Positions 38,501 through 56,344 of a DNA stretch of 64,000 nucleotides are shown in pieces; position 1 is the stretch's first letter, and each line of letters opens with the position of its first letter. The notes under the pieces are model-generated. The model was not told the origin of the DNA, did not search any database, and worked only from the letters and a program-made list of their open reading frames with translations. A program made the translations under genes and the position numbers. Location of the stretch: contig NW_019217860.1 of assembly GCF_002571385.2 (NCBI RefSeq), positions 514,856 to 578,855 on the forward strand, given 5' to 3'. The DNA is from Stylophora pistillata. Taxonomy: Eukaryota.

Positions 38501-39361
38501 ACCTGTTTTTACATAGTATGCGAGCTGGTTGGTGTAGCGGACAGAAACAGAATACCAGACGCTGGAATGACAGCAAACAGTTTTTACTCTGGTAGTTATC
38601 ATCCTTACTACGGCAGACTGAATGAAAGCAGGGGACATGGATTTTGGTGTACTAAGACTTCATCTGATAGAACTGACTATCTTCAAGTTGATATGGGTGA
38701 AGTGCGTTCTGTTTGTGCTGTGGCCACACAAGGACTACAGTATTATTGGTTCCCTATATATACCGCTAGCTATAAACTACACCTGTCCACCGACGGTTTA
38801 ACTTGGAAAACTTACAATGAGACAAATATTGAAAAGGTGTGGATGAAACTGTAACTGACCTTTCCAGTAATTATCAAAGAGTTTGTAGTTGATGCAAAGT
38901 GTTAGCTCAAAGATAGACACTCAGTTGGTGAATTTGGACACTTATCTTCCTTGGCTATTACAGCAAACAAAGGGTCGCGTTTATTTCTCTTTCTTTTTCG
39001 TCCGCTCTGACATGTTCAGTTTGTGGCTGGAATACTTAAGGAAAAAAAGAAACATAGAAACACAGCTCACAGGAAAGAGATGTGCTCTTTTTCCCTTAAA
39101 ACTCTGCGTCCGGAGTTAATGATTCTCAGCATTCCCTCTCCGTTCTAACACCTCGTTTTGTGTGTAGTTTACAACCCTGCTCTATAACTCTCGTTACTCC
39201 GATTTCTTTTCCATTCCTAGATCTTTCAAGGAAACGCAGACCGAAGCAGCATCATGAAACATCCACTCAGTACTGAAGTCAAGGCCAGATACGTTCGCTT
39301 TTATCCTGTCACGTATAACCATCATCTCTGTATGAGTGTTGAAGTGTTTGTGCTAAATTGA
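35569..39361 (+). CDS. Gene A: secreted PAN/apple-like, fibrinogen/COLFI-start-like, EGF, cbEGF, F5/8C (discoidin) protein; possibly disabled
   Basis: Exons: 35569-35884 (hydrophobic N-terminus, CREAC..CQSYN..CELN), 36191-36340 (PAESCEEIK..SGNYWLD), 36419-36536 (EGF), 37271-37396 (DLNEC.. cbEGF), a degenerate EGF at ~37970-38060, and 38517-38836 plus 39221-39361 (YLQVDMG..AVATQG..ARYVRFYP). Confidence 0.82.
37490..37850. repeat. (ATC)n-derived low-complexity intronic tract
   Basis: Repeated atcatc/atcctc/gtcatc triplets. Absent from the paralogous intron of gene C. Confidence 0.8.
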
Positions 39362-40784
39362 CGAAATAAAAATATTCAGTAACCCCTAGAGATTACAAAA
39401 AAGGACGAGTCATGGCAACCTTTTTTCTTTTACTTTTTTTGTCGAAAGGTACTTACACTAGTGAGTAGTGCAATATCTCATTAAAAAGAGGACAAAGTAA
39501 GCTTTACAGAAAAAATGTTTTGTTTCCTAAAATGCATGTATTTTAAATCATGTGAAGTAAATGGCATAAAATTTACATAACTTATCAAACAACTTGCGAT
39601 TTTGTAACAACCTAGGCCTGAATGGAATGCAATTAGAAGGTAACTATTAAATAAGAAATATTTCTTGTTTTATAGGCAAGACAACTAGAGAATTTCGCTG
39701 AAAAAGAATAAATACAGAATTAATTACAATTTATTTTCAAACTGTACCCCAAAATCGTAAAAATTGACCCAGATTATTGAAGTTTTTTTCACCAAGTATT
39801 TACACAAGGGAAGTAAGCTATACCTCATTTGAAACAGCAGTAAATAAGCTTTCCTAAAATTCATGTTTCCTCTGAAGAAAAAAACTATAACCTCAATAAA
39901 TCCTTTCAATTTAGCATAAATTAGCCTACAATATCATCAAAATTTGAACTGTCAATCAAGTGATACCCAAAGGATATAAAGTAATGGGGCAAAAATTAAC
40001 TAAAAAGATTCCTTTTTATATGGGCAACATCTCCATAAAAATTGGTTGACAAATAACAATTCTGAGATGTGTTACGCATATTTTGTAAAAACCTCTTGAA
40101 GTGTATAAAATGGAATTTTTTTCTCTTTGATATAGTTTGAGTGGTGTGTATTATATAGAGGAAAATGTATTTATCATCTTAATTTATCTCTTTCCCTTTC
40201 AAAAACTTCAAGACTTTTAAGTTCCAGTAACGAGGGGTTCCAGAGTTACTATGAGAAGAAAAATTGTTTTTCTCACGACTTAGTCACTTCGGATGTAGAT
40301 TGCTACCTCCCGACTGCATATTCATAGACCTCAGTCCTCAGACAAAGAATACTATCAATCGAAGCGTCGTGGTTAACATCCGAGGTTACTACGCGAAGAG
40401 AAAAACGATTGTGCTCCAAATAGAAAGAGTATTCACCACGAAAACAAACTGTAACATTTTTATGATTATAAGGGATAGTGAGGTGGGGCAAGACTCAAAT
40501 ATCTGGCTGACTTCATGTGCTTGATAGATATAATGCTTTTCTGTAACAAGATATTTTCAAAGAGTGAAGAATTGTGTTCTGATTCTGTCGCAGTTAAACT
40601 AGAATGTTGACAGAGAATGCAAAATAACAGAGGCATAAATAGTCATCCTATGTAGTCGTTGTCTATAGGTAATAAGAGGTAAAGCCCACTCCTCAAAAGA
40701 CGATAATTATATGCTCTGTATTTTGTATAACTATTAAATAAAATATCTTAACGAATAAAATGTTAGCAAAAGCGTCAACTATGT

Positions 40785-53681: not shown

Positions 53682-56344
53682 ATGTTTCACATGGTTGGTC
53701 GACAGGCTTCATTTTTTACCTCGCTAATTTTGATTTCTCAAATGTTTCGTGACATTGCCAGTCAGCAGTGTGGCCTATACTCGACTAAAAAGATGATGCT
53801 AAGGGGCCATACCTATAAGACATTCAAGTTTACACCAGGTACGCTGGAATGCCAAGAGGCTTGTCACGCTGATCTCAGATGTCAAAGCTATAATGTCGTC
53901 ATGTTCATTGCAATATGTGAGCTAAGCAACCGGACTAAAGAGGCCAGACCAGAGGACTTTGTCAAGGACAAGGACAGATATTATGTAGCGATAGGCCCAA
54001 AACGAGGTAATGGATCTTGCAAAGAGCAAATAGTAATAGCACTCTAAAGAAGTGGGGAGAGGGACACTCAATCAACTGGCTCAGTCTTCTAGTGTGAATG
54101 CAACTCTGCATTTTGCTGTGCATTTTTTTTAGAGATAAGTTGATAGACTGCTAATTATTCGGGAAATCTCATACATTCATCACACGTAATGCGTTAGAGG
54201 TGACACGAGCAGATGGTATGGGTCACCTGACACTCATAGATTTTACGCCGCCACATAGTTAGTGACGTTTCGTATTTTTATTCGAAATTTTAATCATTTC
54301 AATTGCAGTTCCTCTCGGATCAATCCGTGAGCTACCTGCTAGGTCGTGTGAGGAAATCAAGGCGAGTGAAGGAGAACAAGCAGTCAGCGGTAATTATTGG
54401 CTGGATTCTACCAGATCTGAGAACTCTAGTTTGGTTCGCTGTGACATGAAGACAGGTGGTTAGTACAAGAACTATTCCTTAGCATGTTGTTGTCGTGCAA
54501 ATGAGAGGCCATCTCTTAATGAATAGTCTTTTATCTAGTTGCAGACTATTGTGCCAAGCACCAGTGCCAGAACGATGCGAAGTGTGTGAACCGGGAAACA
54601 AACTACTCGTGTGCATGTAACTCACCTGGTTGGACAGGAAAATATTGTGAAAAAGGTTTGCCTTTTGTCAAAATCGTGTTTTCGTTTTTTTCGAACAGGT
54701 CTTACTGAACAAGTAAGATGGAGGAAATATGTTGAATCAACCTATTTTTATCCATAGATATCAACGAATGTCAGGAAGATTTGCATATTTGTCTGGCCAA
54801 AGCCATTTGTCACAATACTGAGGGCTCCTACAAGTGTTCATGCAAACCCGGATTTATTGGAGACGGAAAAAATAGCTGCAAAGGTAAGGTAACCTCCTTG
54901 TAACCTCCTTTTGGGTGATTCCAAGGCTACAGGCAGAGGGATTTCAATATCAACAAAATCGTGTAGTTATCGGTACCCAATCAATTGCTGCTATGTTTTT
55001 ACTTCTTAGTTCTTTAATATTTATATACAGTTGAGATTTTATTGTTGACGCAAAGCCCTGGCATGGAATAAAGAAGCTAGAATGATTGTGTCACCTGATT
55101 TTTACTTAGGATGCGAGCCGGTTGGTGTAGCGGACAGGAATAGAATACCAGACGCCAGAATAACAGCAAGCAGTATTCACGATACTAAATATCATCCTTA
55201 CTACGGCCGGCTGCATGAAAGCAGAGGAAAAGGAGGATGGTGCCCTAAGAAAAAACCTCATAATACAGAATATCTTCAAGTTGATATGAGGGAAGTACGT
55301 TCAGTTTGTGCTGTGGCTACACAAGGATTACGCGGAAGACCTTCCTGGTCCACAAGCTATAAACTGCGCCTGTCCACAGACGGTAAATCCTGGAAAACAT
55401 ACAAGGAGACAAATGAAGAAAAGGTGCGGATGAAACTGTAACTGATATTTCAGCAATTATCAGAGACTTTGCAGTTAATGCTTAAAGACAGACACTTAGT
55501 TGGTAAATTTAGACACTTATCTTACTTGGCTGTTACAGCAGAGTTTTCATTCGACACCATTCTCCCTACAATATGGGACTAATGTTGCACATCAAATTAA
55601 AGGGCAGCAGTCAATTATTCACAGCAACAGTAGAGTGTTTATAATAAAAAACAAAATGTACTGGGAGAATTGCTTGTTTTTTACATATCAGACTGTGTAT
55701 ATATAAAGTTTAGGTCCGTCGGAGTAGCTCTTGCACAGAACGTTTTCGAAAGAGATCTGTTCAGGCATTACTTTAGAGATATCATTACTCGGCTTACAAT
55801 GTTCGTTACCCTCGGCAGATGGTTTAAAATGTCCTCGGCAAGTGTCCAGTTCAGGCCAGAATTTTTCGGTGAAACAAATTTTTCTCAAGGGAAGTACCCT
55901 TGGGTATTTATGTAGCCCAAGAGGTTTAAAGGCAAATTTGGAACGTTTGGGACGAGGGGAGGAAGAGGCGATTGATTTCCACCAATCAAAGGGTTGCGTT
56001 TATGACTGGAATACTCCGGGAGAAAAAGAAACAGAAACACAGCTCATAGGCAAGAAATATGTTCATTTGCCTCTAAAACTCAGCGTTCGGAGTCAATTAT
56101 TAATAGCACCACCTCCCCATTTGAACACCTCGTTTCGTGTGTTGCTTATACTCTGCTCTTTAACTCTCATTACTCAGACCTCTTTTTCCATATGCATTCC
56201 TAGATCTTTCAAGGGAACGTAGACGACAGCAGCATCGTAAAACATCCACTCAGTACTGAAGTCAAGGCCAGATACGTTCGGTTTTATCCTGTCACGCATT
56301 ACCGATATCCCTGTATGAGGGTTGAAGTGTTTATGCTAAATTGA
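53682..56344 (+). CDS. Gene C: secreted PAN/apple-like, fibrinogen/COLFI-start-like, EGF, cbEGF, F5/8C protein (intact paralog of gene A)
   Basis: Start at 53682 or 53691. Exons run to 54006, then ~54309-54458, 54539-54655, 54759-54884, 55110-55423 and 56204-56344. Domain-bounding introns are phase 1 and the frame is open. Confidence 0.88.

Follow-up and report, generated by a model that had tools for sequence, protein, structure and literature searches.

Loops on the predicted ligand face of a tandemly expanded coral discoidin family are probably under diversifying selection

We have analysed a stretch of DNA from the stony coral Stylophora pistillata (NCBI RefSeq assembly GCF_002571385.2, contig NW_019217860.1, positions 514,856 to 578,855; the window, 64,000 nucleotides in all), in which three tandem genes, here called A, B and C, each end in a discoidin domain. 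In our view, these genes belong to a stony-coral family that has grown by tandem expansion, diversifying selection acts on a minority of its loop sites, and its products most likely recognise varied and changing non-self surface ligands; we give this reading a probability of roughly 0.6. Selection would act in the germline on the predicted ligand face of the domain and probably serves a recognition role, and the family is likely to represent a varied set of recognition proteins. Each of the three discoidin domains is encoded by two exons, D1 and D2, separated by a GT-AG intron at the same codon in all three genes (Table 1), and the D1 exons score 53-63 bits against PF00754 (Pfam cut-off 28). 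The domains are carried on two kinds of stalk. Genes A and C have the layout PAN, short COLFI-like segment, EGF, EGF and discoidin, and gene B encodes a hydrophobic N-terminus, an RRLRR site, a collagen repeat (Pfam Collagen, E 3e-15), three immunoglobulin (Ig) domains and the discoidin head. All three genes terminate at the discoidin stop codon, with no transmembrane and kinase architecture of the DDR type.

An earlier note on this DNA had proposed that the discoidin domains of A, B and C share a nearly identical framework and vary mainly in four short segments, but it overlooked the two different stalks and the membership of a large coral-wide family. All twelve segments and the framework motifs that it quoted are present between 38517 and 56344 on the plus strand. 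At the protein level, however, framework pairs are 77-84% identical and segment pairs 28-47%, so that "nearly identical" is too strong. The enrichment itself is real, with variable columns accounting for 26 of 34 segment positions versus 33 of 118 framework positions (Fisher p 6e-7), although 33 of the 59 variable columns lie outside the segments, which makes "vary mainly" an overstatement too. Moreover, nine of the 11 columns at which all three genes differ fall in segments, and counting estimates of the ratio of non-synonymous to synonymous substitution rates (dN/dS, or omega) for A-C are 1.3-2.7 in the segments and 0.35-0.57 outside them. Because the segments were chosen by eye on these same three sequences, both the three-way enrichment and the counting estimates are partly circular, and independent sequence sets were therefore needed.

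Codon site models (GY94, F3x4, naive empirical Bayes) were written for this analysis and applied, with gap columns removed, to 17 paralogs having both exons; these were drawn from 23 examined, of which five have no D2 in the locus and one contains a stop. Twice the log-likelihood difference (2dL) between models M1a and M2a is 34.9 for the 17 paralogs, 20.1 for the 10 cleaner genes and 28.4 for the 14 genes other than A-C, the corresponding values for M8a and M8 being 29.9, 20.7 and 16.4. When multi-base changes are allowed, 2dL remains at 18.6 (M1a/M2a) and 8.6 (M8a/M8) for the 17 paralogs and at 12.7 and 6.2 for the 10 cleaner genes. Flagged sites fall in the segments in 16 of 27 (17 genes), 10 of 12 (10 genes) and 17 of 30 (14 genes) cases. 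An independent set was obtained from 80 metagenome loci, taken as other corals with species not assigned, and comprised 51 D1 exons after removal of 20 transcript-like or distant contigs together with those having stops, partial cover or duplicates. For these 51 exons, M1a versus M2a gives a 2dL of 216, or 145 with multi-base changes, and omega is 3.7-4.2 at 9% of sites. All nine selected sites (23, 26, 40, 48, 73 and 75-78) lie within the segments and none in the framework. In 25 indel-free exons the 2dL is 81, and 51 with multi-base changes; loop codons alone, with their own tree, give 27.6 and 22.3, and the framework alone gives 0. As a control, the Ig2-3 exon of six collagen-Ig genes yields a 2dL of 0, and six heads, five of them from those genes, yield 9.9. 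These alignments support a site class with dN/dS near 3-4, confined in the independent set to the putative binding-face loops. The site-model check suggested by the earlier note has thus a divided outcome, in that a class of sites with omega above 1 is supported but the whole-loop average among paralogs is about 1.

Variants of gene B recovered from seven sequencing runs, with D2 of run X15 mostly uncovered, show the same concentration of change. Over the covered part of D1, runs X7 and X18 are identical or almost identical to the window, and X19 is one base off. X17 carries one other D1 type, X15 carries two types with no window type at 49795 and 49808, and the reads of X24 show both. The next best assembly copy to these variants is 75% identical, and an intron-spanning contig of X15 has 22 differences in about 1000 bases. 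In view of the lack of any closer copy and this level of intron difference, the variants are probably alleles or lineage variants of gene B, the alternative being that they are hidden paralogs. Among the rows listed, variable bases occupy 17 of 96 loop positions versus 4 of 354 framework positions (p 3e-9), and all 12 changed loop codons alter the residue, with no purely silent change. In one variant, 59 loop sites hold 11 replacement changes, whereas some 1000 bases of intron hold about 22 substitutions (p 1e-7). Once start-codon and intron read-through artefacts are excluded, protein P0066 differs from B at nine of 25 loop residues and one framework residue, and P0067 at eight of 32 loop residues and two framework residues. 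In addition, 59 distinct D1 proteins with a common intron start, with loci and species not assigned, have a diversity of 0.33 in the loops versus 0.12 outside, and this set contains 10 four-gamete quartets between loops 1 and 3. The idea that the genes undergo diversification of ligand specificity like that of antibody complementarity-determining regions therefore survives as regards the loop-focused excess of replacements, but as an analogy only, since the diversity seen is germline and takes the form of paralogs, likely alleles and reassorted loop types. The data examined give no hint of rearrangement in somatic cells; at most two D1 types are evident per run, and DNA run X7 matches the window, although depth and contig collapsing limit this count.

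A number of observations weigh against selection for specificity, and several of them would fit the explanation that the loops are tolerant surface under relaxed constraint, appearing fast through short conversion tracts or older loop coalescence. When the segments are treated as one class in the 14 paralogs other than A-C, omega is 1.1 versus 0.32 for the framework; it falls to 0.7-0.8 if multi-base changes are allowed or the loop rate is left free, and in no case exceeds 1 significantly. For A-C alone, the significance of whole-segment dN/dS is lost with a free loop synonymous rate. Allowing multi-base changes in the same 14 genes gives a 2dL of 10.9 and 2.9 (M8a/M8 p 0.09), and of the 27 sites flagged among the 17 genes, 11 are not in the segments. 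In close metagenome pairs the proportion of synonymous differences is higher in loops than in framework, which is partly an effect of binning and multi-base codon counting. Recombination is present and can inflate site-model tests, and six null simulations gave 2dL values of 4.0-9.1, indicating that the plain test is somewhat liberal, although these values are far below those found for the coral exons. Runs X17, X19 and, in part, X22 share an Ig3 patch (48639-48711) of 12 changed codons (nine replacement, three silent), which resembles either a tract of gene conversion or a balanced haplotype of long standing, and one loop-3 variant is identical to paralog L002 over 9 bases; from these two cases, conversion can create clusters without selection. 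The gene B variant counts given above do not include 16 further rows. Several family members are broken, and gene A may itself be decaying, as suggested by the shifted donor of its first EGF exon (36537) and its half-lost third EGF exon. Nevertheless, we consider relaxed constraint on its own unlikely. The loops contain invariant residues, so that a whole-loop average of 1 hides faster sites. Moreover, the class with omega above 1 persists when loop codons are taken alone, with their own tree and with multi-base changes, and the changed loop codons of gene B are all replacements.

The location of the segments is consistent with a role in ligand binding. An AlphaFold2 model built from a 56-row alignment has a predicted local distance difference test score of 82 (58-68 over the first 40 residues) and a predicted template modelling (TM) score of 0.82, and the predicted fold is the eight-stranded barrel of an F5/8 type C (F5/8C) domain with PF00754. 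Its structural matches are neuropilin b1, factor V/VIII C2, lactadherin C2 and DDR2 (Foldseek TM 0.85-0.86), with a Z-score of about 21 for the first four and a root-mean-square deviation of 1.6-1.9. The connection from strand 1 to strand 2 holds segments 1 and 2, that from strand 3 to strand 4 holds segment 3, and that from strand 7 to strand 8 holds segment 4. In DDR2, loops L1-L3, L4 and L6 form the ligand trench (PMC2807035 and PMC4332414, both in excerpt), and the segments occupy the same connections. Segments 1-3 also align to spikes 1-3 of factor V C2, whose tips have been described (PMC11098723, in excerpt), and to neuropilin loops, in sequence alignments with numbering counted by hand. 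The expectation of the earlier note that structure prediction would place the segments together is borne out to the extent that all four map to top loops of the predicted barrel; they are predicted to form one ligand face, by correspondence with known loop positions rather than by coordinate distances. A disulphide between the N- and C-termini has been called strictly conserved in F5/8C domains (PMC4332414, in excerpt). The C-terminal cysteine of that pair is, however, found neither in A, B and C nor in the endings common among family members. Cys1 is conserved in 163 of 163 sequences and Cys66 in 261 of 261, and these two likely form a substitute pair. Strong conservation is also seen at Cys44 (250 rows) and Cys141 (37 rows), which lie in loops that match those of DDR2 Cys73-Cys177, a match of loops and not of aligned residues, and we infer that they may pair.

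The three genes have a large number of relatives. Exon D1 has at least 150 matches in this genome, 23 of them with E below 1e-28, and the latter have their exon layout in common, as well as the WC and VC cysteines; about 20 are close paralogs. Contigs C571, C730, C336 and C70 carry arrays in which collagen-Ig and PAN genes alternate, with broken copies interspersed. Searches returned 65 proteins and 466 (the best 120 of 466 were used), with named relatives from Pocillopora, Porites, Oculina, Orbicella, Acropora and Montipora, and other stony corals appear to hold hundreds of relatives. In a tree of the 13 heads with an assignable stalk, the stalk types are intermixed in three groups, a single clade for PAN-type genes is rejected (approximately unbiased test, p 2.4e-5), and well-supported branches force at least three changes of stalk type. 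This mismatch suggests that heads move between stalks or undergo conversion by their neighbours, and the tree fits either process. DNA similarity between B and A starts about 315 bases upstream of the discoidin exon, from which it would appear that gene B either acquired its head as a cassette, with the junction inside an intron, or had it converted by neighbouring genes. Simple orthology to DDR or lactadherin was rejected since the architecture differs. Contigs C55, C589, C268 and C661 contain large discoidin arrays of another subfamily (about 40-50% identity), with several domains per gene and dozens of exon matches.

A search with residues 1-300 of gene B as query listed 120 proteins, and their heads were counted from the Pfam column. 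Among these 120 are discoidin (21), fibrinogen with Ig (14), PF07534 (34), COLFI (5) and SRCR with Ig (2), together with one each of C-type lectin, PF00354, PF02191 with Ig, and PF08005; we take PF07534, PF00354, PF02191 and PF08005 to be TLD, pentraxin, olfactomedin and PHR, respectively. The collagen-Ig stalk (45846-48838; P0268-P0351), a homologue of the stalk of cnidarian ficolin-like proteins (CniFL), carries many C-terminal heads across anthozoans, and the PF07534-headed form, mostly from Acroporidae, is the commonest among the matches listed.

Non-self recognition is the usual driver of clustered selection on loops, and in discoidin domains it is the loops that set specificity. We propose that tandem duplication would multiply the discoidin heads, that recombination or gene conversion would reassort loop types and move heads between stalks, and that purifying selection would maintain the barrel (omega about 0.3) with a minority of loop sites driven to change and new loop variants retained by selection. 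The gene B protein, by analogy with the ficolin-like design, may be anchored, trimerised through its collagen repeat and possibly shed at RRLRR, and the trimer would then bind avidly as ficolins do; the products of genes A and C would be secreted. The ligands could be microbial, symbiont or allogeneic surfaces. Selection might also be real and yet be driven not by microbes but by self or conspecific recognition (allorecognition, gamete or larval adhesion, or matrix partners). High, likely allelic diversity at one gene would fit allorecognition equally well, and animal discoidin domains bind collagen, lipids and peptides. We nevertheless regard this driver as distinctly improbable, given that a secreted or shed collagen stalk as in CniFL suits opsonin-like roles better and that coral discoidin transcripts have been listed as candidate pattern receptors (PMC2291459, in excerpt), although neither consideration is a test. 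A discoidin-annotated gene is also highly differentiated between anemone populations (PMC6010850, in excerpt). Finally, the loops could themselves be the target, in a host surface or matrix protein that evades binding by a pathogen adhesin or toxin. This predicts an equally clustered class with omega above 1 and balanced alleles, and no result separates it from non-self recognition, but it leaves the multiplied heads and their movement between stalks unexplained and seems to us very improbable. A broader form of the non-self reading can be offered tentatively, in which the family would be a natural antibody-like discoidin repertoire of dozens of loci and many alleles, with selected and recombined loops on interchangeable ficolin-type collagen-Ig or PAN-EGF stalks. 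The CniFL stalk would then be a platform for at least nine heads, of which the discoidin arm distinguishes microbes, symbionts or other colonies.

Comparison with known systems places gene B closest to CniFL, a proposed pattern-recognition receptor that by definition combines fibrinogen with Ig (PMC5094078, in excerpt) and whose role in a lectin-complement pathway is a hypothesis in the literature. Gene B alone of the three has the single N-terminal hydrophobic segment, collagen and three Ig domains, and it is 39% identical to, and colinear over 455 residues with, a collagen-Ig-fibrinogen protein. Its head, however, is PF00754 discoidin with no fibrinogen PF00147, and genes A and C are without the collagen-Ig stalk. 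Gene B falls outside CniFL by definition but is built like one. Neither a discoidin-headed form nor a selection test is reported for CniFL in the accessible part of PMC5094078. The vertebrate F5/8C domains (DDR1/2, neuropilin b1, factor V/VIII C2 and lactadherin) share the fold and have ligand loops in the same positions, but identity is about 25-35%, they are single conserved genes with fixed ligands, and the coral family differs in having no C-terminal cysteine and an invariant one at position 66. Coral tachylectin-2 is a positively selected coral recognition gene, but it has another fold, was studied at one locus and involves no stalk or head exchange (PMC2880987, in excerpt). The engineered "discobody" (PDB 4pt6) demonstrates that a discoidin domain can be re-targeted with antibody-like affinity; it is man-made, and the coral family would be its natural counterpart.

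Snail FREPs, amphioxus VCBPs and Hydractinia Alr resemble the coral family in being multigene and polymorphic, with variation on the binding face. These systems vary in Ig or fibrinogen domains, however, and some diversify somatically; the diversity seen in the coral genes is germline. The family is a concrete polymorphic candidate for how corals, without adaptive immunity, specifically recognise symbionts, pathogens and neighbours, and it is currently hidden under labels such as "roundabout-like", "lactadherin" and "peroxidasin-like". Candidate residues in gene B numbering are 23, 26, 40, 48, 73, 75-78 and 137-139, and the domains are small, single and easily expressed. CniFL is widened into a stalk with exchangeable heads, and the loop variants are possible markers of functional diversity for coral population studies. 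The loop specificity of discoidin domains, positively selected coral recognition genes and CniFL were already known. No description of the discoidin family, of the selection on its loops or of the proposed head exchange was found in the literature searched, subscription papers and supplements lying outside that search. The term "discoidin" is absent from the coral genome papers looked up, and in a survey of cnidarian receptors it occurs in the reference list only.

Table 1. Exons of the three discoidin genes, in window coordinates
Feature	Position	Strand	Remarks
Gene A, hydrophobic N-terminus and PAN-like domain	35569..35884	+	90% identity to equivalent gene C exon
Gene A, short COLFI N-terminal-like segment	36191..36340	+	Pfam COLFI E 7e-4, below cut-off
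Gene A, EGF exon 1	36420..36537	+	Donor off by one base; including the exon gives a frameshift
Gene A, EGF exon 2, calcium-binding type	37271..37396	+	
Gene A, third EGF exon, degenerate, first half of domain only	37970..38053	+	
Gene A, discoidin exon D1	38517..38836	+	Segments 38582-38599, 38636-38671, 38735-38761
Gene A, discoidin exon D2 with stop	39221..39361	+	Segment 4, 39311-39331
Gene B, exon 1, hydrophobic anchor or signal and coiled stalk	45846..46044	+	P0004 match; RNA contig joint; hydropathy
Gene B, exon 2, basic RRLRR site, collagen repeat and Ig1	47310..47969	+	Pfam Collagen, I-set; RNA joint
Gene B, exon 3, Ig2 and Ig3	48296..48838	+	Pfam; RNA
Gene B, discoidin exon D1	49750..50063	+	Segments 49815-49832, 49869-49904, 49968-49988
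Gene B, discoidin exon D2 with stop	51005..51145	+	Segment 4, 51095-51115
Gene C, PAN exon	53682-54006	+	Weak Pfam PAN hits
Gene C, COLFI-like exon	54309-54455 or 54458	+	Pfam
Gene C, EGF exons	54539-54655 and 54758-54883	+	Pfam
Gene C, discoidin exon D1	55110..55423	+	Segments 55175-55192, 55229-55264, 55328-55348
Gene C, discoidin exon D2 with stop	56204..56344	+	Segment 4, 56294-56314

The product of gene B is identical, letter for letter, to P0004, which bears the database label "roundabout homolog 1-like" of Stylophora pistillata, and all four joints of gene B as well as the first two of gene C are present in RNA reads or contigs. The D1-D2 joint of gene C was not observed in RNA, in which coverage of C is low; the gene gives an open model of 389-390 residues. 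The frame of gene A is open when its first EGF exon is skipped, and the public model P0186 omits that exon. P0186 also joins the D1 exon of A to gene B, but a fused A-B gene was rejected because A has its own D2 exon and stop. An assembly artefact was likewise dismissed, since the introns differ by 10-30% and gene B is spliced in RNA.

An RNA contig of gene B extends about 1.8 kb beyond the stop codon (51146-52974), and this DNA, which lies before gene C, is homologous to the region upstream of gene A. In a low-depth RNA contig from X19 (50061 to 56202), the end of a B-like D1 is followed by a D2 exon resembling that of C, with eight differences; the contig may come from a further paralog or a recombinant, or from exon skipping between genes. 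Only gene B has a high-copy repeat in its D1-D2 intron (50210-50520). The interval between genes A and B contains, at 40814-45338, about 150 units of a 27-base minisatellite that has a 269-base higher-order repeat; one end is inverted, and the assembly has a gap at 43861. Elsewhere in the window, four tRNA-Thr(AGT) calls (41-113, 57343-57663, 63790-63862) lie in longer repeated, partly palindromic elements that are likely tRNA-derived mobile repeats, and a tRNA-Lys is located at 20629-20701. An intronless open frame of 627 codons at 59018-60901 has no Pfam match, and a single-exon frame at 61463-62707 resembles an IBR/RBR-type ubiquitin ligase (Pfam).

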